NCBI GenBank assembly: GCA_964513505.1
Contig: CAZENL010000002.1
Coordinates: 4,261-68,260, forward strand
Length of the DNA stretch: 64,000 nt
Reading direction: 5' to 3'
DNA from: an uncultured Anaerolineaceae bacterium
Lineage (GTDB): Bacteria > Chloroflexota > Limnocylindria > Limnocylindrales > CSP1-4
Shown here: one piece after another, positions 4,047-32,885 of the stretch
Layout of the letters: every line of letters begins with the position of its first letter
Position numbering within the stretch: position 1 is the stretch's first letter
Translations under genes and position numbers: made by a program
The notes under the pieces: generated by a model
What the model saw: only the letters and a program-made list of their open reading frames with translations
Told to the model about the DNA's origin: nothing
The model's database searches: none

Positions 4047-6197
4047 TCAGTCCATCTCCACCAGGACATCGCCACGGCCGACCTGCTGGCCGGCCTGGAC
4101 GACGACGCGTTCCACGGTACCTGCCGAGGGCGCCGTGACCGTGTTCTCCATCTTCATGGCCTCCAGGACCACCAGCACCTGGCCGGCCTCGACCAGGTCG
4201 CCATCCGACACACGCACCTGGAGAACCGTCCCCGGCATCGGCGCCGTGACGCCAACCTTGCCCGGCGCGGAACCATGGGCATGCGCCACCGCGGAATCGA
4301 CGGTCGGCGGCGCGGCCAACTCCGCGTGGACAGCGAGGCCGTCGACGTCGATGAAGACGGCCGGGGCCGAGGCTCCAGGCTGGACGACCCACGGCAGTCG
4401 CCCGGCCGCGCCCGGATGCACGGCCACGGATCGTTCCTCCAGCCCGATCGCGACACGCAGCGCGGGACGCGCGTTGAGGCGGAAGCCCGATGTCGGTCGC
4501 CCAGCCGGTTGCCCGGTCAAGGTGGCGAGCGCGGCCGCCGCAACGGGCCATGCGGGATCCGGCGAGGGCTCGCCGCCCGGGTGCCAGGTCCGCTCGATCA
4601 GGTCGGTCGTCGTGTTCCCGGTGCGCACATCCGGATCATCGAGGAGCTGCCGAAGGAAGCCGCGATTGGTCGTAACCCCCAGCACTGAGGCCGACTCGAC
4701 CGCGGCGTGGAGCCGCGCGAGGGCATCCGCACGATCGTTCGCATGGCTCACGATCTTGGCCAGCAACGGGTCATAGCGCGTGCCGACCACGTCGCCCTGG
4801 CCGACTCCGGCATCCACGCGCACACCCGCGCCCGCGGGCCACCGCGTGCCGTGAACGCTGCCGATCGATGGGAGGAAGTCGTTCCAGGGATCTTCTGCGT
4901 AGATGCGGACCTCGATGGCATGCCCGCTCCAGGAGACATCCGCCTGGGCAAGTGCCAGCGGCTCTCCGGCAGCGATGCGCAATTGGTCGGCGACCAGGTC
5001 TCGGCCGGTGACGGCCTCCGTGACCGGGTGCTCGACCTGCAGACGGGCGTTGACCTCCAGGAAGAAGAACCCGCCGTCGGGGTCCAGCAGGAACTCGGCC
5101 GTGCCGGCCCCGACGTAGCCCGCGGCACGAACCAGGCGCAGCGCGGCGTCGCCGAGCCGCTGGCGCAGCGCAGCATTGACCGCGGGGGAAGGTGCTTCCT
5201 CCACCACCTTCTGATGGCGGCGTTGGAGCGAGCAGTCGCGCTCGCCCAGATGCACGGCATTGCCGAAAGCATCCGCCAGGATCTGCACCTCCACGTGCCG
5301 GGGATGCGGCACGTAGCGCTCCAGGATCAGGCGGTCGTTGCCGAATGCCGCGTTGGCCTCGCGCCGGGCACGTGGGAGCGCCTCCATCAGCTGCTCGTGG
5401 TCCAGCGCGACATGCATGCCTTTGCCGCCCCCGCCGGCGCTGGGTTTCACCAGCACGGGATAGCCGATCGCGGCCGCGCTGGCATGCAGCGTTTCGTCGC
5501 GCTGATCGTCGCCGTCGTACCCGGGGACGACCGGCACGCCGACGGCAGCGGCCAGCCGGCGTCCGGCGGCCTTGTCACCCAACGCCCTCATGGCCGCTCC
5601 CGACGGACCGACCCAGCGGATTCCGGCGGCGCTGACGGCGTCGGCAAAGCTCGCGTTTTCCGCCAGGAACCCGTAGCCCGGATGGATCGCGTCCGCGTTT
5701 GCGCGGCGCGCGGCGGCCAGGATGGCATCGGCGTCCAGGTACGTGCCGCTGAGATCCACGCGCTCGTCGACCTGTTGCGCCCACCAGGCCGAACGCTGGT
5801 CCTCGGCAACGAGCGCGATCGGCGTGACGCCGATCGCACGGCAGGTCCGCGCGATGCGCACGACCAGTTCGCCGCGATTGGCGATCAGCAGGCGATGGAT
5901 CGGCGCTCCAGCGACCCATGGCGCTACCGCGGCTTCGGGGACAGCGGCCGAGGGCTGCGCGGCCAAAGGCTCCGCATTCGATCCTGCGACACGATCGTCG
6001 AACGCCGATGGATGGACCTTCAGACGGTCGCCGATCTGGATGGACGGCAGCAGGCCGGCCTTGAGCCAGCGCTGCACGGTACGCGTGCTGACGCCCAGCC
6101 TCCGCGCCGCGTCCGATGGCCCGATCGGTCGCGGCTCTCGACTGCTGCCGCGCGTAGCCATCGGTCGGAGTGTCGCGTTTGTCGCCTTCTGCGTCAA
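4047..6197 (-). CDS. liuD: Methylcrotonyl-CoA (acyl-CoA) carboxylase alpha subunit: biotin carboxylase plus BCCP, with a ~95-aa N-terminal HTH (excisionase/MerR-type) extension
   Basis: Biotin carboxylase motifs (IHRLLIANRGELVVRIARTCRAIGV, ATP-grasp, EMNARLQVEHPVTE) and a C-terminal biotinyl domain (EAMKMEN) are present. The N-terminus carries LGVSTRTVQRWLKAGLLPSIQIGDRLKV, an HTH_17/MerR-like motif. The ORF-track start at 6197 is TTG; an ATG lies at 6161 (MATRGSS). Confidence 0.9.
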   Translation of the reverse strand: MTQKATNATLRPMATRGSSREPRPIGPSDAARRLGVSTRTVQRWLKAGLLPSIQIGDRLKVHPSAFDDRVAGSNAEPLAAQPSAAVPEAAVAPWVAGAPIHRLLIANRGELVVRIARTCRAIGVTPIALVAEDQRSAWWAQQVDERVDLSGTYLDADAILAAARRANADAIHPGYGFLAENASFADAVSAAGIRWVGPSGAAMRALGDKAAGRRLAAAVGVPVVPGYDGDDQRDETLHASAAAIGYPVLVKPSAGGGGKGMHVALDHEQLMEALPRARREANAAFGNDRLILERYVPHPRHVEVQILADAFGNAVHLGERDCSLQRRHQKVVEEAPSPAVNAALRQRLGDAALRLVRAAGYVGAGTAEFLLDPDGGFFFLEVNARLQVEHPVTEAVTGRDLVADQLRIAAGEPLALAQADVSWSGHAIEVRIYAEDPWNDFLPSIGSVHGTRWPAGAGVRVDAGVGQGDVVGTRYDPLLAKIVSHANDRADALARLHAAVESASVLGVTTNRGFLRQLLDDPDVRTGNTTTDLIERTWHPGGEPSPDPAWPVAAAALATLTGQPAGRPTSGFRLNARPALRVAIGLEERSVAVHPGAAGRLPWVVQPGASAPAVFIDVDGLAVHAELAAPPTVDSAVAHAHGSAPGKVGVTAPMPGTVLQVRVSDGDLVEAGQVLVVLEAMKMENTVTAPSAGTVERVVVQAGQQVGRGDVLVEMD

Positions 6198-21143: not shown

Positions 21144-23429
21144 GTGGTTACCCAACGAAGCCAACCAGACCTGCCGCCAGTCGCTCCCGAGCCGCTCTCG
21201 GCTGCGGAGCTCGCCCCCGACGACGAGGTCGGCACGACCAGATCGCGGCCGCATCCCGCGCCGCGCCACGAGCTCACGGACGGCATCGACGTCTTGCTCG
21301 ACTGCCTGCCCCCGGAGATCCAGGCCAGCTTCAGGGCCCTGCCGGAGGCATCGACGGTGATCGAGGTGGTGCTCGATCTCGGCCGCCCGCCGGAGGCGCG
21401 CTTCGGCGCGGGCGGCGAGGCGCAACTCCTGTCTCGAGAGATCGACGAGGAGGACATCCAGTACGTCGTCGACCACATCGGCTCGTTCGGCGACGACAAC
21501 CGCGCGGGCATCGAGCGGACGCTCCACCGCATCTCGGCCATTCGCAATCGCAACGGCAAGATCGTTGGGCTGACGTGCCGCATCGGGCGGGCCGTGTTCG
21601 GCACGATCGAGATCATCGAGGACCTGGTGGAGTCCGGGAACTCGGTGCTGATCATGGGCCGGCCGGGCATTGGCAAGACCACCATGCTGCGCGAGGCGGC
21701 GCGCGTGCTGGCAGACGACATGGACAAGCGTGTCGTGGTCGTTGACACGAGCAACGAAATCGCGGGCGACGGAGACATTCCCCATCCGGGAATCGGCCGC
21801 GCACGCCGAATGCAGGTGCGCACCCCGGCGCAACAGCACGCGGTGATGATCGAGGCGGTGGAGAACCACATGCCGGAGGTCATCGTCATCGACGAGATCG
21901 GCACGGAGTTGGAGGCACTGGCCGCCCGCACCATCGCCGAGCGCGGAGTCCAGCTGATCGGCACCGCCCACGGCAACAGCCTGGACAACCTGATGCTCAA
22001 CCCAACGCTGTCGGACCTGATCGGCGGTATCCAGTCGGTGACGCTCGGCGACGAGGAGGCACGTCGGCGGCGCACGCAGAAGAGCGTGCTGGAGCGAAAG
22101 GCGCCGCCCACCTTCGACGTGGTGGTGGAGATCCAGGATCGCGATCGCGTGACCGTGCACGTGGATGTGGCCGAGACCGTCGACGCGCTGCTGCGCGGCG
22201 ATCCACTCGCCCCGGAGATGCGCTGGCGGGACGAATCGGGCGTTCATCGGTCGCAGGCCCGGCCAAAGCCAGGGCCGTCGGCCCAGTTGCCCGGAGAGCG
22301 ATTCGGCGGCCTGGTCGGCAGCGGACAGATGGGCTGGCGCGTCGAGCCCGGCTGGCGGCCGGACGCGCGCCGCAACGAGGCCGGCGCGGGCTACCGCGAG
22401 ATCGGAGCTCGAAGCCCGGAGCGCGAGCGCGGCGGAGAGCGCGAGCGTGGTGGAGCGCGGCCCGGCTATCGGCCCGGTGCGAGTGGCGGCTGGCGCAGTT
22501 CACGCGGGCGGAGCGGCGGCACCCGTTCGTCCGGTTCTGAAACCCCTCCAGCGGCCTGGCCTGGGGAGTCGGGACAAACCTTCCCCGCTCCGGCGGGTTC
22601 GTCGGCACCCACCGGTTTCCAGGCCGGCGAGATTGCCGACCGGGGTCCTCTGGAGCGCGGCACGCCGCCGCCACCGGAACCGCGCGCCAGGGATTCGCGC
22701 GAGTTCGACCGCCAGAAGGCGTGGCGCGACTCGGCGGTGCGCGCAATGCGGGAGATGCGTGCCGAATCGAGCGCGTCGGGGGTGGACGACGAGTCTGCCA
22801 GCGCGGAGACCGTCGGGCGACCGGTGGATGCGGCTGGGGCGCTGGACTCGGCCGTCTGGCCGCCGCGCGAGATCTGGCTCGAACCGGACACGGACGACGA
22901 CGATCCGGAGGCGGAGGTCATCCACCTCTCCGACGGACGCCAAGAGGCCAGCCTCCCGCTGGAGACGCTCAACGTGCTGGGTTTCGGGGTCAGCCGCAAG
23001 CGCCTCGAACAGGCCATTCGCGAGCTTCAGCTGCCGGTCGTGATCGTGCGCGAAGCCCGAGAAGCGGACGTGGTCATTACCCTGCGCAACTTCTACAAGC
23101 AGAAGGCGCCGGCCCTGCGTGACGCCGAAGACCGCGGACTTCCCATCTACGTGCTCAAGTCCAACACGATCGTACAGATCCAGGCCTCCCTGACCGCGCT
23201 CTTCTCGCTGGACCTGGACCCCAACGAGGCTGCGCTTCGCGAGGTGGAGGACGCCATCGGCCTGGTGCGCCAGGAGCAGAAGCCGGTCGAGCTCTCCCCG
23301 CAGAACGCCTACATCCGGCGGTTGCAGCACCAGGCGGCTGAGCGGGCCAACTTCGTGTCCCGTTCTCGCGGCCGCGAGCCGTTCCGTCGCGTACGCGTCT
23401 ACCCGGATCGCGTTCGCACCTGGCGCTGA
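21144..23429 (+). CDS. Ycf45/SpoIIIAA-like AAA ATPase with a C-terminal R3H nucleic-acid-binding domain and a long Arg/Gly-rich linker
   Basis: Walker A (GRPGIGKTT) and Walker B (VIVIDEIG) are present. The central region is low-complexity ([15 protein letters not shown]...). The C-terminal R3H-like region is [13 protein letters not shown]. Confidence 0.8.
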
Positions 23430-23460
23430 GGTCCACGCGGCGCGCCCGCGGCCGGGCGCC

Positions 23461-25263
23461 TCAACGCAGAGCCAGCGCCTGGACCGTCATCAGCGCACCG
23501 GCACCGAGCACGGTGAAGGCCGTCGCCGTCGGCAGCCACCGCGCAACGCTCACGCCGCGGCCGCCCGTGGAGAAGCGTTCCACGAAGCCCCGAGCGTAGA
23601 CGAGGCCCATGCCGACCCCCACCAGCACGATGGCCATGCCCAGTCCGAACGCCACCGTGAGCACGACGCCGTAGGCGGGCCTGCCCGCCGCGAGCGCTCC
23701 AAGAAGGACGATCAGGGCGGAGACTGACGGCACCATGCCGCCGGCAAGTCCGAGCGTGATCAGGCCGCGACGGCTCAGCGTGGTTCCCTTCGGGGGAAGG
23801 TGTGTGTGGGTCCGGCCGCCATGGCTGTGCCAGCCGTCCTCGGCGGCGTGCTCGTGCTCATCACTGTCGTGCGGATGGTCGTGGGGTTCGGCGTCGCTGG
23901 TCTGGTGTACGTGTCCGTGGTCGTCAGCGTGGTGGTGTTCGTGATCGTGTTCGAGATGGTCCGCGTGAGCCTCGGCATGCGCGACGTCGGCCCGGGCAGC
24001 CGAGCGCGACCGGCGTACCTCGGCAATCCGCTGCCAGATCAGCCACGTGCCGATAGCGACGACGATCGTGCCGGAGGCCACGCCCAGGATCGGATAGAGG
24101 CGATCGGGTTGGATGACCGTGGAGAACGAGAGGGTCAGCAGTCCCAGGGTTAGCACTCCGATCGTGTGAGACACCGTTACCATCAGACCGAGTCCCAGGG
24201 CCTGGCGCGCATTGCCACGTGACCCGACCAGGTAGGCGGCCATGACGGTCTTGCCATGGCCAGGGGAGACGGCATGCAGGGCGCCCAGGCCCGCGGCCAC
24301 CAACAGCGAGACCGCGATCACCCACGGGGTGAGGTCCTTGGCCTGGAACAACGCGGTCACATCCGAGCCAAGGTCCGTGACGCCATTCGGCACCGCGGCG
24401 GTCACCGGCGGGTTGGCGGCGGGCTGGACGGGTATGACGGCGGGATCGGCCGGCGCCGAGACTGGCTGCTGCGGCACGGTCCCGCTGAGCGACGCCGGCT
24501 GGCTGGTGATGGGCTGCGCGTCGGGGATGCTGAGTGGTGGCAATGCTGGGCCACCCGGCTGGGCGGTCCACGCCGCCTGGAACTGGTCCAGCGGGACGGT
24601 CAACAGGTCCGTCGGATAGGTGGTCAGGCGCAGGCTGACGGTGGAGTCCGGGGCGTCCGAATTGACCAGGGTGGCTCCGTCGCCCTGCACCACGACCTCG
24701 CGCCAGCCGCGGCGGTCCGCGTAGAGGTTGTCGCTGAACGAGAAGGCAGTGCCTGCCGAGAGCGGCGAGGCCAGCGGAGCCCGGTAGGTGCATACGAGGC
24801 GCATGGTCACGGCGCCCTGGCCCTGCGGGAACTCGATACCGCGCTCGGTGACGGCCAGCGCCAACGGCATTCCCCCAACAGAAAGGTTCAGCGACTGCCG
24901 GGTGCTGTCGCAGTGGCTGGCCGCATAGGCTGCGGCTTCGGAATCAGACACGCTGCCGTCGCCGTCCGTGTCCATGTCCGCACGCTCGGAGAAGGTCGGT
25001 ATTTCCGCCATATCCAGGACGTGGTCCACGACCACGTCCGTCGTCGACACGCGAATGCCGTCGTAGCGGTTGATCGTGAAGTTGCCCAGCGGGTGCGCGC
25101 TGACGGCAACCGGGAAGAGCAGCGCCGTTGAGGCGAGGAACCCTGCCAGCAGCGGCCGGCGAAGCCTCTGGAGACGAACGAGGCCGCTCACGGCTGGGTC
25201 CCCGCTGCGCCGCCGAGTTCGGCGAGCGCGGCCGCGGCCCGCGGCGCGTAGAGCGGCGACCAC
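23461..25263 (-). CDS. RcnA/NicO-family nickel/cobalt transporter fused to a ~300-aa N-terminal secreted domain
   Basis: The C-terminal half aligns with E. coli RcnA (LGALHAVSPGHGKTVMAAYLVG; His-rich loop HAEAHADHLEHDHEHHHADDHGHVH; GLAGGMVPSVSALIVLLGAL). The N-terminus has a signal peptide plus an uncharacterised domain. The start overlaps the 3' end of the upstream TPR gene by 76 nt and may lie further downstream. Confidence 0.8.
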   Translation of the reverse strand: MVAALRAAGRGRARRTRRRSGDPAVSGLVRLQRLRRPLLAGFLASTALLFPVAVSAHPLGNFTINRYDGIRVSTTDVVVDHVLDMAEIPTFSERADMDTDGDGSVSDSEAAAYAASHCDSTRQSLNLSVGGMPLALAVTERGIEFPQGQGAVTMRLVCTYRAPLASPLSAGTAFSFSDNLYADRRGWREVVVQGDGATLVNSDAPDSTVSLRLTTYPTDLLTVPLDQFQAAWTAQPGGPALPPLSIPDAQPITSQPASLSGTVPQQPVSAPADPAVIPVQPAANPPVTAAVPNGVTDLGSDVTALFQAKDLTPWVIAVSLLVAAGLGALHAVSPGHGKTVMAAYLVGSRGNARQALGLGLMVTVSHTIGVLTLGLLTLSFSTVIQPDRLYPILGVASGTIVVAIGTWLIWQRIAEVRRSRSAARADVAHAEAHADHLEHDHEHHHADDHGHVHQTSDAEPHDHPHDSDEHEHAAEDGWHSHGGRTHTHLPPKGTTLSRRGLITLGLAGGMVPSVSALIVLLGALAAGRPAYGVVLTVAFGLGMAIVLVGVGMGLVYARGFVERFSTGGRGVSVARWLPTATAFTVLGAGALMTVQALALR

Positions 25264-26702
25264 ATCGGGTTGGCGGCAAGGCTCTGCTGGAGCCAGCTGC
25301 GCGCCTGGGCGTCGTCGCCCTGTGCCTTGGCGATCATGCCCGCGTGGTACGTGTAGGAAGGGTCCTTGTAGCCGAGCCTCAGCGCCTCGTCGGCGTACGT
25401 GCGGGCCTGCGCGAACTGGCCGTTCTGGTACAGCGCCCAGCCCAGCGCGTCGGCGGCCTTGATGGTCGGCGTGGCGGCGTAGGCCGTCTGGGCCAGCGTC
25501 AGGGCCGTGGCCGGATCGCCGTGCTCCGACTCGAAGAGTGCCAGGTCCAGGTCCGTGTTGACACCGTTGGCGGCGAACAGCGCCTCGATCTGGCGCACCA
25601 GCGCGTACGTCTTCCTGGAGTCCTGATCGCGCCCGGCGGCTTGCTGTGCCTCCCCTTCGGCAATCAGGAATTCGGGGAACGGAACGCGGTCGGCGGCGAC
25701 CTTGTAGCAGGCGATGGCCTGGTCGAGGTCACCCCGGGCCGCCGACACGCGGCTCACGCCTGCGAGTGCGAAGACGTAACCGGGCTCAAGCTGAAGCTCC
25801 GTCCGGTAGGCACCATCTGCCTTCTGGAGGTCGCCGGCCGTGAACTGGAGATTGCCCAGGATCACGCGCAGGTAGCCCGTGTTCTCCGGCACCGGCCCGC
25901 CCGCCTCGATGGCCAGAGCCATCGCGCTGATCGCGCCGGGAAGGTCCCCGTGCAACTCGCGCACGTAGGACACGCGGCTGTAGGAACTGAGGTCCGGTCG
26001 CATCCGGGCCATGGCATCGACGCTGGCCTGGGCCTGGTCGTAGAGGCCCAGCTCGTTCTGCGCGTCGCCGAGGACGCCGTAGATGTTCGCGGTGTGGGGA
26101 TCGAGCGCCAGCGCCTGCTGTCCGATGGCGAGGGCGCTGGCGAACTGGTGCCGCGCCAGGGCGATGGTGCCATGCCCGATGAGCGCTTCGACGTCGTCCG
26201 GGTTGACCGTGAGCAGCTGCTGGAACGCCTCGTCAGCACGGTTGTAGTCGGTGGGGTCCGCCGTCTCCCTGGCGTGCTGGTAGTAGGAGAGGCCGAGGTA
26301 GAGCAGCGAATCGTGGTCGCCGGGGTTGGCCTTGAGCGCCGCCGTGTACTTGGCGATCATGGCCTCCGTCGCGGTGGAGGCAGGCGCGGTCCCGGAGTCT
26401 GCGGCACACGCCGCGGGCACGGCCGTCGGCGGGGCCGTCGTCACGGGCGTGGCCGGCACGACGAGCGCCCCGGCGATGAGTCCGCTCGTGGGTGTGGCGG
26501 CCGATGGGGAACCGACCGCCGCGCCCGGGGCTGGCGTTGGCCCGTTGATGCCGGTCGATCCGGCTGCAATCAGGGCGCCACTGAGAATGGCGATCGCGCA
26601 GATCGCGCCAACGGCGCCTAGCCAGGTGGATCTTGATCGCCGGCCGCGATCGGGCCGAGAGTCGGTCATCGTGCGTGTCCCCTCGGTGTCGTTGCGTCCC
26701 AT
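25188..26702 (-). CDS. Secreted or membrane-anchored TPR-repeat protein
   Basis: An N-terminal TM/signal segment (WLGAVGAICAIAILSGALIAA) and Pro/Ala/Thr linker precede about 9 TPR units. Alternative starts are at 26705 (GTG) and 26669 (ATG). Confidence 0.65.
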   Translation of the reverse strand: MGRNDTEGTRTMTDSRPDRGRRSRSTWLGAVGAICAIAILSGALIAAGSTGINGPTPAPGAAVGSPSAATPTSGLIAGALVVPATPVTTAPPTAVPAACAADSGTAPASTATEAMIAKYTAALKANPGDHDSLLYLGLSYYQHARETADPTDYNRADEAFQQLLTVNPDDVEALIGHGTIALARHQFASALAIGQQALALDPHTANIYGVLGDAQNELGLYDQAQASVDAMARMRPDLSSYSRVSYVRELHGDLPGAISAMALAIEAGGPVPENTGYLRVILGNLQFTAGDLQKADGAYRTELQLEPGYVFALAGVSRVSAARGDLDQAIACYKVAADRVPFPEFLIAEGEAQQAAGRDQDSRKTYALVRQIEALFAANGVNTDLDLALFESEHGDPATALTLAQTAYAATPTIKAADALGWALYQNGQFAQARTYADEALRLGYKDPSYTYHAGMIAKAQGDDAQARSWLQQSLAANPMWSPLYAPRAAAALAELGGAAGTQP

Positions 26703-26769
26703 CACTTGCCCCTGCGTCCCTGCTGCATCTGGTGGAGAGCGAGGTGCGCCGCGTGAGGCGGAGGCAGCC

Positions 26770-26790
26770 GGCGGACCACTGCGGTCCGCC
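26770..26790 (-). terminator. Hairpin GGCGGACC-ACTGC-GGTCCGCC, 34 nt downstream of the DUF4331 stop and upstream of the co-oriented TPR gene
   Basis: Perfect 8-bp GC-rich stem with a 5-nt loop. It could attenuate read-through into the TPR/rcnA-like genes. Confidence 0.25.
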
Positions 26791-26823
26791 GAGCCAGCCT
26801 CGCCTCACCTCGGCGTGCGAGTC

Positions 26824-28323
26824 CTAGTTGGGGGAGATCCCCACGCGGCGCGGTCCTGCGAGCGCGGCCGCGGAGGAACCGGCTGCGTGAGCAGCGGCAC
26901 CGGCAGGCGCCTGGTTGTTCAGCGAGCACGGGGAGTGGCGGTAGTCGCCACCCTCGTAGCCCTTCCAAGGCGTCGCGACGTAGGGGAACGACGACAGGAA
27001 TGCCCGGTCGTTCGTGTTGCACCCGTCACCGATCTGGTTGTTCGGAGACAGGTTCTTGAGCCCGAAGGCGTTGTGGAGGAACGAGCCGTAGCCGTCAGCA
27101 ACGGCGCGGAGCTCGATGTCCACGACGTCGTCGGTGAGGCGGCGGCCATTGGGGAAGCCGGCCAGGTCACCCGCCAGGGCACCCAGGCGGCTCGGATGTG
27201 CGGTCGGCGGCACGCCCATGTTGAGCCGGAGCTCGTCGTAGAGGGTGCTGCCGGTATTGGTCTGGTTGAGCGTCGGAACGCCTTGGCCGAGGATCAAGGC
27301 GAGGTCGCCGCGACCGGTGGTGTCAGCGTCCGGCAGTGACGGGTAGATCGTGTTGATGATCGCCGCCAATTCCGGGTTCTGGTAACGGGCCATGTAGGTG
27401 GCATCACCGGACGGGTCGGACGCGTTCCACTGGTCCTTCTCGCCGACGGGGATGATCACCTCGTTGATGAGGGGGTTGCCGAGACGGGAAACCTGCTGCC
27501 AGGTCCCGGCGGTGCCGGCGGTCGTGACGACCATGCGGCTGGCGCCCGCCCAGAACCCGACCGACGCGTTGCTTGCGCCGGGTCCGCTGACGGGCTGGCC
27601 GTCCACGGTCAGGTCCGAGTTGGGCACCTGGAACGCGATGCTGTTGACGTTGAAGCCCGCCAGGTCGTCCTGGCCCTTGGCGGTTGCCAGCGGAAGCAGG
27701 TGTGCGCCGTTGAACGGCCGCAGGCCGCCAAGGTCGAAGATGGCGCCGATGTCGGCGAAGAACGGATCGTCACGCTGCCCGGCGAAGACCATGCGATCGG
27801 TGCCGAACGAGTGAATGCCGTCGCTGGCGATGTCGTGATAGCTGGGCGTGGTGCGAGGGCCGATGTTCGGCGCCGGCACGGACAGGTCGCTGGCCACGGT
27901 CACGCCGTTGCGCTGGACCGTGTAGGTCTGCGTGACGTTCGCGGCCACCGCGGGGATCGGCCCGTAGCCGCTGTACAGGAAGCTGTCCGGGTTCGCGACG
28001 TGAGTCGTGAACTGGAACGTGTAGGTGACGTCGGCAACGCCGTCGCCATTGTTGTCGACCTTGACCCAGTAGAGGACGGTGGGGTCGAAGGGGTAGAAGT
28101 TGGGGCCGCCGGCCGGCTCCTGGAAGCCGTCGTAGTCGGCGACGACCGTGACGGTGCTCGGCTTGTCCGGACTGACGAACGCGTACAGGTCCGTGTTGTC
28201 CGCCGAAGGATCCCGTGAGATCAACGGAGCTTCCCGGTGGCTCGACGCGAGCGCCGGAACCGATGAGGAGATCGCGATGAGCCCGACGGCTCCCGTGATC
28301 GCGATCGATCGTTTGAGAGACAT
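26824..28323 (-). CDS. Secreted DUF4331-domain protein
   Basis: Signal peptide (MSLKRSIAITGAVGLIAISSSVPALA) then the SHREAPLIS...DNTDLYAFVSPD motif characteristic of DUF4331. A GGGAGG Shine-Dalgarno lies 9 nt before the ATG. The ORF-track N-terminal 51 aa are upstream read-through. Confidence 0.75.
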   Translation of the reverse strand: MSLKRSIAITGAVGLIAISSSVPALASSHREAPLISRDPSADNTDLYAFVSPDKPSTVTVVADYDGFQEPAGGPNFYPFDPTVLYWVKVDNNGDGVADVTYTFQFTTHVANPDSFLYSGYGPIPAVAANVTQTYTVQRNGVTVASDLSVPAPNIGPRTTPSYHDIASDGIHSFGTDRMVFAGQRDDPFFADIGAIFDLGGLRPFNGAHLLPLATAKGQDDLAGFNVNSIAFQVPNSDLTVDGQPVSGPGASNASVGFWAGASRMVVTTAGTAGTWQQVSRLGNPLINEVIIPVGEKDQWNASDPSGDATYMARYQNPELAAIINTIYPSLPDADTTGRGDLALILGQGVPTLNQTNTGSTLYDELRLNMGVPPTAHPSRLGALAGDLAGFPNGRRLTDDVVDIELRAVADGYGSFLHNAFGLKNLSPNNQIGDGCNTNDRAFLSSFPYVATPWKGYEGGDYRHSPCSLNNQAPAGAAAHAAGSSAAALAGPRRVGISPN

Positions 28324-28521
28324 TGACGAAAGAACCTCCCTATCCAGTGGTGCGTCCCCGAACGGCTCGGCTTCTCCCTGGTTCCCTCCTTCCACTCGCG
28401 CCATCCCGGTGCTGGGGCCTGCGTCCCCTCCGGACGGGCCGGGCATGTAAGAGGCCGTTCGCGATCGGCGGGTCAAGGGATGAATCGAGGTGAGAATCCC
28501 TTCGCTAGACTTCGCGACGCA

Positions 28522-29208
28522 ATGAGAGCCGCGGCGTTAGGCCGTTTCGTGTCCCTCGAGGGGCCGGACGGAGCGGGGAAGTCACGGGCGGCGGGACGCC
28601 TGGCCGAGCACCTGCGCGCGCGGGGCGTGGCAGTCACTCTCACGCGCGAACCCGGCGGCACGCGGTTGGGTGAGCAGATCCGCGCATTGCTGCTCGACCG
28701 CGACGCCGCCGAACGCGTCCCGGAGGCGGACGCGCTGCTCTTCAGCGCAGCGCGCAGCCAGCTGGTCCAGGAGGTGATCCGGCCGGCGTTGGATCGCGGT
28801 GACGTGGTGGTCTGCGACCGCTTCGCCGCCTCGACGCTCGCCTACCAGGGCTACGGCGCGGGCGTAGATCTCGAGTCGCTGCGCCTGATGGAGTCGCTGG
28901 CCGTGGACGGCACGCGGCCTGACCTGGTGCTGCTGCTGGATACGCCGGTCGAGGTTGGCCTGGGCAGGCGCGGAATTGGAGACCCGGCGGAACTGACGCG
29001 TTTCGAGGATGCCTCACGGCATGATCTGGCATTCCACGAGCGCGTCCGACGCGGATACCTGGCGCTGGCGGAGGCTGACCCGGAGCGCTGGAGAGTGGTC
29101 GACGGAGACCGCGAGCCGGCCCGTGTTGACGCAGAACTCTTCCGTCTGGTGGACGAGTTTTTGGCTTCCGATGAACTATCGGGCGCCCTGGCGCGCATGC
29201 ACCAGTGA
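28522..29208 (+). CDS. tmk: Thymidylate kinase
   Basis: P-loop (FVSLEGPDGAGKS) plus LID and DRF motifs (VVCDRFAAST). Start chosen at the M that gives a canonical Tmk N-terminus. Confidence 0.85.
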   Translation: MRAAALGRFVSLEGPDGAGKSRAAGRLAEHLRARGVAVTLTREPGGTRLGEQIRALLLDRDAAERVPEADALLFSAARSQLVQEVIRPALDRGDVVVCDRFAASTLAYQGYGAGVDLESLRLMESLAVDGTRPDLVLLLDTPVEVGLGRRGIGDPAELTRFEDASRHDLAFHERVRRGYLALAEADPERWRVVDGDREPARVDAELFRLVDEFLASDELSGALARMHQ

Positions 29209-29837
29209 ACGCAACGCCCGATCGCGGCCTGACTGCGGGCAGCCTGCCCGAGCTGACCGACGAGGCGTTGCTCGAACGTGCCGGCAATGGCGATCAGGGC
29301 GCGATCGCCGTGCTGTACGACCGCTACAGGGGATTGATGTACGGATTGGCGACCAGGATCACCGGCGACCAGGCGCTCGCGCAGGACGTCCTCCAGGACG
29401 CTTTCGTGGGCATCTGGAAGAACGCCGCGCGCTTCTCCAGCGCCCGCGCCAGCGCGCGCACGTGGATCCTGTCCATCACGCATCACCGCGCCGTGGATGC
29501 CGTCCGCCGGCGCCGTCCGACCATGGAACTGCCTGACGCGGAACTGCCGCCGCCGGTCCAGCTGACCGTGCCGGATGTCTGGGGTGACGTGGCCCAGCGC
29601 CTGGACGGCGAAGCGGTCAAGGCCGCCCTCGAGACGCTCTCCGGCGTACAGCGCGAGGCCATCGAGCTTGCCTACTTCGGCGGGCTGACGCAACAGGAGA
29701 TTGCCGACCGCACCGGTGCGCCGCTGGGGACGGTGAAGAGCCGTGTCCGCCTCGGGCTTCTGCAACTCAGGACCGTCCTCGAAGGCGATCAGACGGCCAC
29801 CACGGCGCGGCCACTCACGGTCATGGAGCGGACATGA
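29205..29837 (+). CDS. ECF sigma factor (sigma-70 regions 2 and 4), SigK-like
   Basis: Region 2 (DVLQDAFVGIWKNAARF) and region 4 (ELAYFGGLTQQEIADRTGAPLGTVKSRV) are present. ATGA overlap with tmk; the cognate anti-sigma gene lies downstream. Confidence 0.85.
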   Translation: MNATPDRGLTAGSLPELTDEALLERAGNGDQGAIAVLYDRYRGLMYGLATRITGDQALAQDVLQDAFVGIWKNAARFSSARASARTWILSITHHRAVDAVRRRRPTMELPDAELPPPVQLTVPDVWGDVAQRLDGEAVKAALETLSGVQREAIELAYFGGLTQQEIADRTGAPLGTVKSRVRLGLLQLRTVLEGDQTATTARPLTVMERT

Positions 29838-30784
29838 CCATCGAACGCATGAACCTGAGCTGCGACGAAGTGGACGAGCTGGCCGGCCTCTACGTGCTCG
29901 ACGCGCTGGAGCCCGCGGAGGAAGACGCCGTCCGGAGCCACCTCGCGACGTGCGTCAAACCGCATGCGGACTTCGCCGCCGTGGGTAGTGCCGTGCCGGC
30001 CCTGCTCGCCACCATCCAGGTGGTGGAGCCGCCAGCCGAGTTGCGCGCGCAGGTCCTCGCCACGATCGCAGCGACACCGCAGGTTGCGGATGCCACGGCT
30101 CTGCCACGGGCGACCCCGGCCGCGCCTCCCGCGCCCGTCGCGCCCGCGCCCGTCGCGCCCGCGCCCGCGCCCGTCGCGCCCGTCGCGCCTGCTCCGGCCG
30201 GGGTCCGACCGGCGGGGCCCATCTCGCTCCCCGCAGAACGGGAGCGGCGCGCCGCCCGCTTTGGCAGGACGTGGCAGACGGTCGTTGCCGCGGCGGCCGT
30301 GCTGCTCATCGTGGTCCTCGGCGCGACCACGTTCGCGTTCCAGCGCCAGGCGGCGGACGCGGAGGCGCGTGCCAACACGCTGAGCGCGGCGATCGCGGCC
30401 AGCCTGGATCCGAACAGTTCCACGGCCAGCCTGCGCGGCAGCGGTGTGGCTGCGGCTGCAGCCGGATTTGCGGCCTTCCCGCCCTCAGGCGGCGGCTACC
30501 TGGTGATCCGCGGGCTGCCGGATGTGCCCGCCGGCAAGACGTACGAGGCATGGTTCCTCGCGGGCACGACGCCGTACCCGTCCGTGTTGCTCACCGTTGG
30601 GTCGGACGGGCTGGCGGTCGTCAAGGACCTGGCGATGGTGCCCGGCGCGGATGCCATGGCACTCACGGTCGAGCCCGCGGGTGGGAGCCAGGCGCCGACG
30701 AGCACGCCCATCGTGGTCGGGAAGATGCAGGCTGGGCCGGCTGCGCGCGTCATGCCCGCGCGCCTGGTGGCGTCGAGCCGCTAG
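29834..30784 (+). CDS. Anti-sigma factor, RskA-like (N-terminal anti-sigma domain, TM helix, C-terminal RskA-type extracytoplasmic domain)
   Basis: ATGA overlap with the sigma gene. The N-terminus (LYVLDALEPAEEDAVRSHLATC) resembles anti-sigma-K. There is one TM helix (VVAAAAVLLIVVLGATTFAF). An internal (PAPVA)n repeat is present. Confidence 0.7.
   Translation: MTIERMNLSCDEVDELAGLYVLDALEPAEEDAVRSHLATCVKPHADFAAVGSAVPALLATIQVVEPPAELRAQVLATIAATPQVADATALPRATPAAPPAPVAPAPVAPAPAPVAPVAPAPAGVRPAGPISLPAERERRAARFGRTWQTVVAAAAVLLIVVLGATTFAFQRQAADAEARANTLSAAIAASLDPNSSTASLRGSGVAAAAAGFAAFPPSGGGYLVIRGLPDVPAGKTYEAWFLAGTTPYPSVLLTVGSDGLAVVKDLAMVPGADAMALTVEPAGGSQAPTSTPIVVGKMQAGPAARVMPARLVASSR
30120..30205 (+). 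repeat. Tandem 15-nt repeat (GCGCCCGCGCCCGTC-like) encoding (PAPVA)n in the anti-sigma factor
   Basis: Five to six direct copies. Confidence 0.6.
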
Positions 30785-31782
30785 CTCGCGGAGACGAAGC
30801 TCCCCGGTCCCTTGGCGTGGGCCTGTTCCAGTGCGTCCTTCGCGGCCGCCAGCAGCGCAGTCGCGGTGGCGCCGTCCTCGGGGGACCTGGCGATCCCGAT
30901 CGAGACGGTGATGGGTGCTCCGGGCGTCGGCTCCAGGACTGCGATGGCGGCCCGAATGCGCCCCGCGACGATCGGTCCGCCTTCACCTGGGGCGATGACG
31001 CCGAACTGACCGCCTGCAAGGCGCGCAACGGTGTCCACGAGGCGGACCTCTGAGGCGAGCGTGGCAGCCACCCGACGCAGCACGTCGTCCGCCACGCCGG
31101 CTCCCTGGCTTTCGGTGATGGTGTCCAGGCCATCGACGTCGAAGAGGCACACGCCGACGGCACTGTGCTGGCGGTCCGCGCGGGCCATCTCCAGCTCCAG
31201 CATCTGCTCGAAGGTGGGGCGGTTGGCGAGACCTGTCAGCGCGTCCGTGTGCGTGAGGCGCTCGTGGTAGGCCGACTGCTCGGTCAGGGCATTCTGGAGC
31301 CGCACCTGGCGGATCGCCACGCCGGCGAGGTCCGCGAGCGCGGCGACAGAGTCCATGGACACCGAACCGATCTCCGGACCGTCAAGGCCGAGCACCAGCA
31401 GGCCCTCGATGTGCGGGCCGCTCTCCTCCTCCACCACCAGCGGCACGAAGGTGTAGCCCGTGGCGGGCAGCAGGGCGTGGATCTCCGGACGCGGAGTCGC
31501 GTTCTCTGCTGGGACCGGACGGCGGTCGCGAATGGCGGTCGCCAGGGCGTCGTCCGCCGTTTCCGGATCGATGACGTGCAGGCCGTCCGGCGTGACCAGG
31601 TGGCCTGCCTCCGGGTCGTACAGGAGGACGGCGCTGGAGCTGGCGCCCGAGATCACGCGGGCATGCTCGGCCAGCGCTCGGAGCTTCTCATCGAGGTCGC
31701 CGCCATGGGCGAGGACGCGGGCGGCCTCCAGGAGGCTGAGGCTGCCGGCAGTGGTCGGATCGTTCGCCATCGCAACGATCAT
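30781..31782 (-). CDS. GAF-GGDEF diguanylate cyclase
   Basis: GAF-like N-terminus, then GGDEF motifs (RLAGGQFGV-type degenerate-to-active site plus DALTGLANR). Start chosen at the ATG giving MIVAMANDP. Confidence 0.8.
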   Translation of the reverse strand: MIVAMANDPTTAGSLSLLEAARVLAHGGDLDEKLRALAEHARVISGASSSAVLLYDPEAGHLVTPDGLHVIDPETADDALATAIRDRRPVPAENATPRPEIHALLPATGYTFVPLVVEEESGPHIEGLLVLGLDGPEIGSVSMDSVAALADLAGVAIRQVRLQNALTEQSAYHERLTHTDALTGLANRPTFEQMLELEMARADRQHSAVGVCLFDVDGLDTITESQGAGVADDVLRRVAATLASEVRLVDTVARLAGGQFGVIAPGEGGPIVAGRIRAAIAVLEPTPGAPITVSIGIARSPEDGATATALLAAAKDALEQAHAKGPGSFVSAS

Positions 31783-31832
31783 ATGCGCTGGCGCGCGCCG
31801 CCGCGGGCCAGACGGCGATTCCGGCGCTGGTT

Positions 31833-32885
31833 TCAAGAGCCGGCCGCCTCTCCGCGGTCGATCAAGGCGGCGTAGGTGTCGGCATCCACGTTGCCGCCGC
31901 TCAGCAAGGAGACGACCGGTCCGTCAGCCGGCAGCTCGTCCGCATGGAAGAGCCAGGCGGCGAGGGAAACGGCCCCGGATGGCTCCACGATCAGGCGCGC
32001 CAGGTCGCGGGCCCGGACCATGGCGCGACAGATTTCCGTCTCGGTCACGGTCAGCACACCGTCCAGGTAGGCCTGGAGCTGGGGGAACGTGAAGCGGCCA
32101 AGCGCGCTGGTGCGGACGCCGTCGGCGATCGTGCGGCCGGTCAACGCCGCGTCCCAGCGCACGATGTGCCCTTCCAGCAGGGACTGGCGCGCGTCGGCGG
32201 CCAGCTCCGGCTCGACGCCGAAGACGCGCGCCTCCGGCCGGATCGACTTCACGGCCGTCGCCACGCCCGAGGCGAGGCCGCCGCCGCCGACGGGAACCAG
32301 CACGGTAAAAGGCAGTCCGGCAGGGGCGATGGCAGCCCGCCCGCCCGCACCGATGTCCTCGGCGATCTCCAGCCCGGCCGTGGCCTGCCCGGCGATGATG
32401 CGCGGGTCGTCGTAGCTGGGGATCAGCACCATGCCGTGCCGGTCTGCCAATTCGTGGGCGCGCTGGCTCCGTTCGTCGCTCGCGGGTCCGACGACCACGA
32501 TCTCGGCTCCGTCGGCAGCCACCCGCTCCGCCTTCACGCGGGGAGCGTCGTCCGGCATCACCACGATCGCCCGGATGCCGAGCAGGCGCGCCGCCCGGGC
32601 CACACCCTGGGCGTGATTGCCGCTCGACGCGGTCACCACGCCGCGTCCGCGCTCCTCGGCAGTGAGTTGTGCCAGCGTGTTGTAGGCGCCTCGCAGTTTG
32701 AACGCGCCGATGGGCTGGAGGAGCTCCGGCTTGAGCCACGCTCGGGGATGCCCAAGAAGGTTGCCGGGGATCGGCGGCCCGAACGGCAGCAGTGGTGTCC
32801 GGACGGTGATGCCGCGGAGCCGCACGGCGGCAGCGCGAATTTCGTCCAGCGTGACCAGGGAGGGAGGGTTCTGCGGCTCGGTCAC
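31833..32885 (-). CDS. Threonine/serine dehydratase (PLP fold-type II)
   Basis: PLP-lysine motif (IGAFKLRGAYN), Gly-rich loop (VPVGGGGLASG) and SGNHAQG are present. GTG start at VTEPQN. The upstream 210 codons of the ORF-track entry are antisense to the GuaB3-like gene. Confidence 0.8.
   Translation of the reverse strand: MTEPQNPPSLVTLDEIRAAAVRLRGITVRTPLLPFGPPIPGNLLGHPRAWLKPELLQPIGAFKLRGAYNTLAQLTAEERGRGVVTASSGNHAQGVARAARLLGIRAIVVMPDDAPRVKAERVAADGAEIVVVGPASDERSQRAHELADRHGMVLIPSYDDPRIIAGQATAGLEIAEDIGAGGRAAIAPAGLPFTVLVPVGGGGLASGVATAVKSIRPEARVFGVEPELAADARQSLLEGHIVRWDAALTGRTIADGVRTSALGRFTFPQLQAYLDGVLTVTETEICRAMVRARDLARLIVEPSGAVSLAAWLFHADELPADGPVVSLLSGGNVDADTYAALIDRGEAAGS

Follow-up and report, generated by a model that had tools for sequence, protein, structure and literature searches.

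Previous work described the anglerases, N-terminal-His beta-sandwich domains that carry helices between strands 2 and 3 and are tethered by a linker to HupE/UreJ-2 nickel permeases (PMC12537917). These domains bind Cu(II) and Ni(II) at 60-220 nM, the dissociation constants being 62-74 nM for copper with Ang-1 and Ang-2 and 220 nM for nickel with Ang-1 (PMC12537917), and the authors proposed that the anglerase domain 'fishes' metal and feeds the permease, for uptake (Franco Cairo et al., Nat Commun 2025, PMC12537917). The names NicO, RcnA and DUF4331 do not occur in the text of PMC12537917. Here we describe a locus from an uncultured Anaerolineaceae bacterium (Chloroflexota; Limnocylindrales) in which genes for a DUF4331 protein, a tetratricopeptide repeat (TPR) protein and a NicO/RcnA-type permease with an outer domain form one minus-strand operon, divergent from tmk and the genes for an extracytoplasmic function (ECF) sigma factor and its anti-sigma factor. 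The DNA analysed, called the window, is 64,000 nucleotides long (contig CAZENL010000002.1, positions 4,261 to 68,260); its G+C content is about 69%, and window positions are used throughout. An original prediction, made from the sequence alone, had proposed an envelope metal-handling module controlled by the adjacent ECF pair. The module is real, widely conserved and so far undescribed. We read it, with a confidence a little short of even, as an ECF- or Fur-controlled extracytoplasmic capture-and-uptake relay, for which nickel is the most likely metal and cobalt and copper are alternatives.

Precedent exists for a capture domain with an N-terminal His (His1) on a permease and for ECF or Fur control of metal transport; what is new here is the combination, the NicO scaffold, and the DUF4331 and TPR partners. 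In CopC-CopD, and in YcnJ with YcnI, an extracytoplasmic His1 beta-sandwich is fused or coupled to a copper importer and is joined by a second secreted or anchored His1 protein. The window locus would likewise set a His1 beta-sandwich on an inner-membrane importer and add a second extracytoplasmic protein, whereas the copper systems belong to other membrane and outer-domain families, serve copper, and are without DUF4331, a TPR protein or an ECF regulator. Escherichia coli RcnA (NF007454) shares with the window permease six helices, a first helix of the HAxxPGHGK type, a His-rich central loop and, in RcnB, the pairing with a secreted accessory protein; unlike the window permease, RcnA has no signal peptide or outer domain and is under cytoplasmic RcnR control, and the window context points to uptake. 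Mycobacterial SigK has mpt70/mpt83 and dipZ as its targets. The SigK/RskA pair of Mycobacterium tuberculosis (ECF19) is like the window pair in providing the nearest sigma factor, an RskA_C anti-sigma factor and translational coupling of the two genes, and unlike it in that the window sigma falls below the NCBIfam cut-off and is without the redox-sensing Cys pair, no autoregulatory motif was found in the window's clade, and the neighbouring targets differ. ZrgA of Vibrio cholerae and PA4063 of Pseudomonas aeruginosa share the beta-sandwich fold class and are metal carriers serving importers, but they are Zur-linked, free-standing periplasmic proteins of ABC-type zinc systems, with no sequence similarity to the window domain. 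The N-terminal His of CopC is mentioned in the anglerase paper (PMC12537917). CnrYXH of Cupriavidus metallidurans (ECF291) senses periplasmic nickel and cobalt (PMC7826278); here too an ECF sigma and membrane anti-sigma system lies beside a Ni/Co transport operon, which CnrYXH controls, but that operon encodes an RND efflux pump, the regulators are of the CnrY/CnrX type, and CnrH is distant from the window sigma.

Conservation of the module

Twelve aligned DUF4331 proteins were used to scan one genome per GTDB species, and at least 575 stretches encode a relative. The best 79 of these at least 575 loci were fetched with 10-kb flanks (individual loci carry L numbers below), and co-occurrence was counted in the 50 loci whose flanks reach at least 4 kb upstream and at least 5 kb downstream. 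Two approaches, tblastn with the window proteins and independent open reading frame (ORF) calling followed by all-against-all clustering, agree. A TPR gene accompanies DUF4331 in 45 of the 50 loci, on the same strand in 44. The fused permease is present in 33, with the outer domain and NicO contiguous in every one and the gene co-directional in 30. An ECF sigma gene of the same cluster occurs in 26 loci, 16 of which share the window's arrangement, with the gene divergent and upstream. Gene order varies between DUF4331-TPR-permease and DUF4331-permease-TPR. The full module is found in Chloroflexota and Actinomycetota (Gaiellales, Thermoleophilia, Solirubrobacterales), and Acidobacteriota loci have DUF4331 and TPR only. 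The conserved neighbourhood for which the original prediction proposed a check is therefore found: DUF4331, TPR and the fused NicO permease are co-conserved and co-directional across Chloroflexota and Actinomycetota, and an ECF sigma gene adjoins them in about half of the loci.

The closest relatives of the window are metagenome-assembled genomes (MAGs) labelled Chloroflexota / Candidatus Limnocylindrales. Because an identical DUF4331 protein and the same gene order stand on two independent metagenome contigs, local mis-assembly is ruled out. Identical contigs are held by peat and soil samples (JGI 3300028577, ENA ERZ27245389). Two complete modules lie in L008 (10001-18635) and L022 (5190-12851); in L008 these are two DUF4331-TPR-permease sets, paralogues of about 26-50% identity. 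Tandem DUF4331 copies occur in L005, L013, L019, L020, L033, L036, L039 and L054. No paralogues were found within the window.

Genes flanking the module and the choice of metal

In L052 the order on one strand is NicT, a Fur-family gene, DUF4331 and TPR, with the permease divergent, and this NicT passes the nickel-importer equivalog cut-off (543 bits against 450). NicT also lies directly after the permease in L068; CbiM and CbiQ follow it in L048, and in L055 CbiM/CbiQ/ATPase genes and a Fur-family gene lie beside it. A second, short NicO/TauE-like permease is present in eight actinobacterial loci, and five loci have Fur-family genes in or adjoining the module. When the 98 immediate neighbours of the module were surveyed with Pfam, NicO proved to be the commonest family; efflux families (CDF, P-type ATPase, RND) did not recur, and no CopA, CopZ, CsoR or multicopper oxidase gene was seen. 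The importers and Fur-type repressors in the flanks therefore favour nickel/cobalt acquisition, and with NicT, CbiM/CbiQ, extra NicO-type permeases and Fur-family regulators in or beside the module elsewhere, the metal-handling theme proposed at the outset stands.

The same flanks bear on a non-metal reading, in which DUF4331 and the TPR protein would be envelope proteins under an envelope-stress ECF sigma and the NicO permease a bystander. Such roles would suit the third of loci in which DUF4331 and TPR occur without the permease, and those in which the two stand beside sortase-like, PBP1 or sugar-metabolism genes. We regard them as very improbable: the permease is translationally coupled to TPR in the window and co-directional in 30 of 33 loci, both secreted parts have invariant N-terminal His motifs, and no functional theme other than Ni/Co transport and Fur-family regulation recurs in the flanks.

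Two further observations were made in these flanks. The Fur-family regulators directly upstream of DUF4331 in L046 (9099-9815) and L052 (9101-9817) have C-terminal tails of about 70 residues, almost all His, Glu and Asp (HSHEHPHDHPHSHEH...), and score below the cut-off of every named Fur, Zur and PerR model. In L048, the same actinobacterial MAG that has CbiM and CbiQ, a bacterial large signal recognition particle RNA (Rfam, 189.6 bits) lies at 5536-5801 on the minus strand, about 1.6 kb upstream of the module, and is incidental.

The permease and its outer domain

The last gene of the operon had been described as an RcnA/NicO-type permease with an extra secreted N-terminal domain and an extremely His-rich loop, and its product is such a protein (Table 1). 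The membrane domain matches NicO at 54.3 bits (cut-off 27.7) over profile positions 7-271 of 287. With the RcnA subfamily model NF007454 it scores 126 bits (E 1.6e-36) against a cut-off of 195, which by sequence makes it a relative, not a member, of that subfamily. The HoxN/NixA/NicT importer models (TIGR00802, NF052500) are absent from the NCBIfam matches of the window permease. The N-terminal 285 or so residues have no Pfam match.

Residues A32-H33-P34-L35-G36, D56, D60, E63, D74, C94, C134, W163 and E165 are invariant in 57 full-length homologues, as are H455, H457, H462 and H464 and the motif G-W-H-S-H-G-G-x-x-H-T-H (residues 453-464) that ends the His-rich loop. His33 always stands directly after an A-x-A-type signal-peptide end and is nearly invariant in 21 N-domain sequences. 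With the N-domain placed outside, the His-rich loop is predicted to be cytoplasmic. Residues 453-464 are modelled as a small beta-hairpin and may form a fixed metal site in the cytoplasm, separate from the low-complexity run of His.

Structure modelling of the N-domain, suggested in the original prediction, gave an AlphaFold2 (AF2) model that is confident over most of residues 38-230, mostly with a predicted local distance difference test (pLDDT) score above 90. Strands at 40-49 and 52-61 are followed by helices at 63-73 and 83-100 and then by seven further strands, so that strands 1-2 of the modelled beta-sandwich are linked to strand 3 via two helices. The best PDB match by Foldseek is Cu-bound Ang-1 (9gce, probability 1.00), and among the next credible matches are Zn-binding ZrgA (8f1b) and PA4063 (7bgo), with probabilities of 0.8-0.93 and template modelling (TM) scores of 0.43-0.47. 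A sequence link from the outer domain to Ang-1, ZrgA, PA4063 or DUF6702 was sought by Pfam, by single sequence and by profiles, and none was found; the EF-hand-like loop is the sole part of the domain that scores against PDB sequences.

Set beside the anglerases, the window permease has the same order of parts, namely signal peptide, invariant N-terminal His, Ig-like beta-sandwich, helices between strands 2 and 3, linker and metal permease, with the His placed first after the predicted cleavage and the sandwich and its helices taken from the model. It is unlike them in that the permease is of NicO/RcnA type (PF03824) and not HupE/UreJ-2 (PF13795), in having no detectable homology to Ang-1 in sequence, at profile level included, in its EF-hand-like loop and Cys pair, and in its place in a conserved operon with DUF4331 and TPR under ECF or Fur control. 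We treat the outer domain as one that, on its modelled fold, may work like an anglerase, and not as a member of Ang-1/Ang-2.

The fusion itself is common. The permease has 5215 homologues, most covering at least 90% of the query, and the outer domain by itself retrieved 2752 clusters (50% identity), in which it nearly always begins 20-45 residues from the N-terminus. Among 10 varied N-domain homologues compared with Pfam, 8 have NicO or the related DsbD_2, 2 have no match, and none has HupE/UreJ-2 or another permease family. The idea that the fused N-domain is an assembly artefact is ruled out by the thousands of fused homologues, the 33 contiguous loci out of 33 and the two independent contigs. 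The further claim that the fused domain is uncharacterised holds as far as Pfam is concerned, but the 2025 paper describes analogous His1 domains on HupE/UreJ-2.

DUF4331, the TPR protein and the intergenic hairpin

The DUF4331 protein matches PF14224 at 417 bits (cut-off 27) over profile positions 1-421 of 421, and the strong Shine-Dalgarno sequence claimed for its gene is there. Its signal peptide is of the Sec type, with predicted cleavage after ...VPALA to leave SSHREAP, and the motif [A/G]-[S/A]-S-H-R-E-A-P stands at the signal-peptide end in all 86 of the 86 DUF4331 copies of the fetched loci. Cleavage by the -3/-1 rule would leave X-S-H, with His at mature position 3, and therefore an amino-terminal Cu(II)- and Ni(II)-binding (ATCUN) arrangement; the mature N-terminus, S-S-H in the window, is thus predicted to be ATCUN-like. 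An ATCUN arrangement, defined by a free N-terminal amine, His at mature position 3 and a residue other than Pro at position 2, binds Cu(II) and Ni(II).

These termini raise the case for copper, in which the same architecture would be an acquisition route like CopC/CopD or YcnI/YcnJ. ATCUN motifs and N-terminal His sites have their highest affinity for Cu(II), and Ang-1 and Ang-2 bound copper best, but the membrane domain is in the Ni/Co NicO family, the recurring neighbours are Ni/Co transporters, and no copper genes were seen in the flanks. We give copper a slim chance.

Residues 90-98 of DUF4331, DNNGDGVAD, form a Ca-loop-like motif of the DxNxDG type with invariant residues. Together with the EF-hand-type loop of the capture domain, this suggests that the secreted parts have Ca2+ sites of a structural kind; among weak PDB matches, the best are to calcium-binding proteins and lanmodulin. 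The AF2 model of DUF4331 is moderately confident (pLDDT 69, predicted TM score 0.75) and has no PDB fold match. DUF4331 likewise has no PDB sequence match, and it carries no NCBIfam name.

The TPR protein, originally called secreted, does have its TPR repeats outside, but a single hydrophobic helix holds it in the membrane. From the N-terminus it has a basic segment, one hydrophobic transmembrane helix, a Pro/Ala linker and then extracytoplasmic TPR repeats, and on this sequence is better described as membrane-anchored and outward-facing. It has a weak match to the CcmH/CycH TPR family.

A GC hairpin at 26770-26790, in the spacer of 118 nt between DUF4331 and TPR, had been proposed as an element that could set the relative expression of the two genes. 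The core is confirmed and belongs to a longer stem (Table 1); a 131-nt stretch with the hairpin folds at -68.5 kcal/mol, with a z of -2.7. It is not an intrinsic terminator of the usual kind, as there is no T-run or U-tract and a terminator scan calls nothing at 26748-26815. Each locus was then represented by its best single hairpin no more than 100 nt from the DUF4331 stop. The median energy is -38.3 kcal/mol, with -25 kcal/mol or lower in 79 of 84 cases, against -26.2 kcal/mol inside the DUF4331 gene (48 of 86) and -28.7 kcal/mol after the TPR genes (36 of 55). A strong hairpin 3' of DUF4331 is thus a conserved feature, and its retention after the stop across homologues fits the proposed effect on expression. 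Binding-protein genes in transporter operons are often kept in excess by such 3' elements. Most simply, the hairpin would terminate transcription in part, without a tail, or would stabilise the 3' end, and DUF4331 would be made in excess over the membrane components.

The properties of these two proteins also allow a metalation system, in which DUF4331 would be a secreted nickel, cobalt or copper enzyme, the permease an exporter, the His1 domain an outside metallochaperone and the TPR protein an assembly factor. Like an enzyme, DUF4331 shows very strong conservation and keeps dozens of polar residues invariant, many of them Asp, Asn, Arg and His. The TPR protein is its tightest partner (45 of 50 loci), is retained in loci that have no permease, which an assembly factor might be expected to be, and has the weak CcmH/CycH match; the membrane domain has its closest likeness in the RcnA efflux subfamily. 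We nevertheless hold metalation to be unlikely, since searches with DUF4331 turned up neither a catalytic fold nor a PDB relative, the NicT, CbiMQ and Fur-family neighbours fit uptake better, and an excess of DUF4331, as implied by the hairpin, fits a carrier as well as an enzyme.

Sigma factor, anti-sigma factor and promoter motifs

The ECF sigma factor has regions 2 and 4 only, with matches to Sigma70_r2 and r4_2. Its best PDB match is SigK of M. tuberculosis (4nqw, E 1.4e-30), against E 1e-8 for CnrH, and the NCBIfam SigK subfamily is its best NCBIfam match, at 159.5 bits against a cut-off of 226. It has zero cysteines; the Cys pair of SigK is present in 56% of ECF19 and 94% of ECF18 (PMC7509140). 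The anti-sigma factor is a single-pass protein, with an N-terminal zf-HC2-type domain (E 1e-6), an Ala/Pro-rich linker, a transmembrane helix and an extracytoplasmic RskA_C domain (64 bits, cut-off 29.4, E 2e-17), and it matches the 'anti-sigma factor' model NF052375 at 117.7 bits (cut-off 100). The pair is therefore SigK/RskA-like, as first proposed. The likeness to RskA had been placed at the N-terminus of the anti-sigma factor; it is clear in the C-terminal domain, but RskA_N (E 0.003) stays below threshold.

An ECF-type promoter-like motif lies upstream of DUF4331 (Table 1). In the closest relatives, L003, L004, L006, L009 and L075, T[CG]ATCC-N16-CGAA is found at -159 to -197, and a position weight matrix made from those five relatives' sites only ranks the window site at 28488..28453 second of about 128,000 positions in the window. 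Across loci, sequence upstream of DUF4331 shows an enrichment of about 30-fold in this motif class. In actinobacterial loci a de novo bipartite search found CGAACCG-N13-(C/G)CGAAT, 75-130 nt before the DUF4331 start, and in eight of them a second copy runs in the opposite direction, facing the divergent ECF gene. The pattern CGAACC-N14-17-CGAA occurs 65 times in 2.6 Mb, both strands counted; 28 of these occurrences stand no more than 260 nt in front of DUF4331, and 8 stand in front of the ECF gene. A motif common to an ECF gene and its target is the usual mark of an autoregulated ECF sigma. In Thermoleophilaceae loci a variant, GTGATCC-N16-CG(A/C)A, lies between co-directional genes and therefore supports the motif being read towards DUF4331. 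The SigK consensus, which we take to be CCATCC/CCGAAT, presumably resembles the CATCC and CGAA(T) of the window motif. ECF control in the window is suggested by the ECF-like form of the motif, by its adjacency to the sigma gene, by the analogy with actinobacterial loci, and by the observation that sigma clade and -35 type change together across loci.

The original prediction had expected a promoter of the AAC-N17-CGT type in the intergenic gap. GGAAC-N16-CGTT is present in the window but is unconserved in relatives, the only other match among the 50 loci being in L071 (position -176 against -68), and it is probably a chance match or a lineage-specific second promoter; the conserved type is instead TCATCC-N16-CGAA at 28483..28457. 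A riboswitch or leader RNA was sought with Rfam, which at permissive thresholds was empty in 22500-31500 and showed no riboswitch in seven related loci. A small ORF in the 5' leader was also considered and rejected; L009 has one overlapping the DUF4331 start, and the window and L004 are without. In the predicted 5' leader, some 65-100 nt before DUF4331 begins, L003, L004, L006, L008, L009 and L075 share with the window (28386-28393, minus strand) a purine-rich block, GGAAGGAG or similar; in several relatives a GGGACGC...CCATCC stretch comes after it.

An ECF pair beside an RcnA-like permease also suggests metal resistance, with a Ni/Co exporter, DUF4331 sequestering metal in the role of RcnB, and the ECF pair sensing excess as CnrYXH does. 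The RcnA-subfamily similarity and the His-rich loop would agree with this, ECF/anti-sigma control of Ni/Co efflux is established (CnrH, ECF291; PMC7826278), and RskA-type anti-sigma factors occur in the heavy-metal-linked ECF290 (PMC7826278). Such a system is nonetheless rather improbable here. The sigma is nearest SigK and not CnrH, no CDF, P-type ATPase or RND family recurs in the flanks, NicT, CbiMQ and Fur-family genes are associated with the module, and a secreted binder would add little to efflux in hosts that are presumably mostly single-membrane.

Layout of the locus and adjoining genes

The positions of the features are collected in Table 1. The three co-directional minus-strand genes run from 28323 to 23461 just as the earlier annotation had them, and the head-to-head arrangement with tmk-ECF-anti-sigma across 198 bp is borne out; the gap is 198-225 bp, depending on the tmk start. 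ATGA overlaps had been given for the plus-strand genes; the ECF stop and anti-sigma ATG do overlap as ATGA, but the overlap of the tmk stop with the ECF start is GTGA. The TPR stop and the GTG start of the permease overlap as GTGA. A 600-aa permease ORF in the ORF list is an over-extension of the gene product.

Table 1. Features of the DUF4331-TPR-permease locus and its divergent operon, in window positions
Feature	Position	Strand	Remarks
DUF4331 gene	28323..26824	-	499 aa; PF14224 E 1e-124
TPR gene	26702..25188, alternative start 26669	-	about 504 aa; several TPR Pfam families match
NicO-type permease gene	25191..23461	-	576 aa; GTG start
tmk (dTMP kinase)	28522 (or 28549)..29208	+	first gene of divergent operon; TIGR00041
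ECF sigma gene	29205..29837	+	210 aa; Sigma70_r2, r4_2
Anti-sigma gene	29834..30784	+	RskA_C, zf-HC2
ECF-type promoter-like motif TCGATTCATCC-N16-CGAAC	28488..28453	-	about 134 nt upstream of DUF4331 ATG
-35-like TCATCC	28483..28478	-	part of conserved motif
-10-like CGAAC	28461..28457	-	part of conserved motif
GGAAC-N16-CGTT	28385..28361	-	about 40 nt upstream of ATG; classical ECF-like match
Shine-Dalgarno GGGAGG of DUF4331 gene	28340..28335	-	11 nt before ATG, read from sequence
GC-rich stem-loop	26815..26748	-	directly 3' of DUF4331 stop; 9-bp core 26791-26769
Permease signal peptide (predicted), residues 1-32	25191..25096	-	ends ...AVSA
His33	25095..25093	-	first residue after predicted cleavage, ...AVSA then HPLGNF
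Beta-sandwich capture domain (modelled), residues 33-211	25095..24559	-	Cys94/Cys134 pair
EF-hand-like loop DTDGDGSVSDSE, residues 74-85	24972..24937	-	perfect DxDxDGxxxxxE, between two helices
Pro-rich linker	24558..24382	-	59 residues
NicO/RcnA-like six-helix membrane domain	24336..23464	-	PF03824
His-rich loop TM3-TM4, residues 405-464	23979..23800	-	20 His in 60 residues

The tmk product matches TIGR00041 at 155 bits (cut-off 83). Because tmk is adjacent only in Limnocylindria-type loci (9 of 50), its adjacency is lineage-specific synteny. In some Limnocylindria relatives, L003 (8907-9788, minus strand) and L008 (8971-9795, minus strand), the divergent ECF operon opens not with tmk but with a gene that resembles sortases (Pfam Sortase, E 3e-4 to 5e-9), and probably the same holds for the upstream region of L006; a sortase-like gene at the head of the ECF operon hints at cell-wall attachment of some component. 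On the permease side, window 21144-23429 (plus strand) encodes a 761-aa protein with AAA/SpoIIIAA-like, PTPase-like and R3H parts, convergent with the permease across a 31-bp gap. On the other side, a GAF-GGDEF diguanylate cyclase gene (window 30781-31836, minus strand) overlaps the anti-sigma stop by 4 nt. Both hold their position in Limnocylindria relatives and not elsewhere, which looks like lineage synteny and not part of the module.

Discussion

In the relay that we favour, DUF4331 would be secreted and, owing to the stem-loop 3' of its gene, made in excess over its partners, and its mature S-S-H-R-E-A-P terminus would provide an ATCUN-type Ni(II)/Cu(II) site. The membrane-anchored TPR protein may hold or dock DUF4331 at the cell surface. 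Metal would be handed to the N-terminal His of the beta-sandwich 'anglerase-like' domain, which a Pro-rich tether joins to the NicO/RcnA-type permease, and the permease would move it inward, to the His-rich cytoplasmic loop. Transcription would start from the ECF-type promoter 134 nt upstream of DUF4331, through the adjacent SigK-like sigma, which the RskA-type membrane anti-sigma would release upon some envelope signal; in related lineages the same module would be under a Fur-family repressor instead. In its most specific form, a three-part nickel relay widespread in soil Chloroflexota and Actinomycetota that consists of an ATCUN-tailed DUF4331, a TPR scaffold and an RcnA-like importer fed by its tethered anglerase-like domain, with an ECF or Nur-like switch that depends on the lineage, the proposal is tentative and on balance doubtful.

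Several points weigh against the relay. The main counter-arguments are the RcnA-like membrane domain and the preference of His1 and ATCUN sites for copper: among named families the RcnA efflux subfamily stands closest to the membrane domain, and exporters too can have His-rich loops. Resemblance to Ang-1 is modest (E 8e-3, TM score 0.46, root-mean-square deviation 7 Å), and a profile of the 21 N-domain sequences run against all PDB sequences found EF-hand proteins only, and not Ang-1 (9gce), ZrgA or PA4063. The cleavage sites of DUF4331 and the permease are predictions from the -3/-1 rule only. DUF4331 identity across phyla is 43-68%, a conservation that looks more like that of an enzyme than of a simple carrier, and a literature search found no paper mentioning DUF4331 or PF14224. 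About one third of loci are without the permease. In L014, L018, L021, L024 and L026 (and L019), all Limnocylindrales, TPR is upstream of DUF4331 with no permease, and in loci of the L014 type genes for a SorC-type regulator, an FGGY sugar kinase and an ABC ATPase follow; DUF4331 and TPR can therefore exist outside a metal-transporter context.

The role of the adjacent ECF factor meets a similar objection. An ECF gene is adjacent in about half of the loci, which agrees with the original prediction that it controls the module, but in the window's clade no TCATCC-type copy was found before the tmk/ECF operon, and the motif there is always close to the start of the divergent gene. Because of this, the orientation of the motif and the sigma factor that reads it are things that we infer. 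So too, we infer which metal is carried and which way the permease moves it, as well as the cleavage sites and the hand-off from protein to protein.

The lineages that bear the module (Limnocylindria, Gaiellales, Thermoleophilia and Solirubrobacterales) are soil lineages, mostly uncultured and largely single-membrane. Their hydrogenases, urease, Ni-SOD and B12 enzymes are limited by how much nickel and cobalt they obtain, and their ways of scavenging trace nickel are poorly known. The predicted ECF promoters and the cognate sigma and anti-sigma genes make a clean pair testable in a heterologous host, and the hairpin would be a tidy example of stoichiometry control inside an operon in high-GC bacteria. 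The permease would be a third, sequence-unrelated case of an N-terminal-His capture domain tethered to a permease, on a NicO/RcnA scaffold; if the relay is true, the anglerase principle would extend to a second permease superfamily and an RcnA-like protein would act in uptake. The DUF4331 family is large, all 8000 of 8000 scored candidates having matched and at least 575 species-level loci being confirmed. The locus offers a testable function for it, and the three-part relay, if true, would be the first function for DUF4331.

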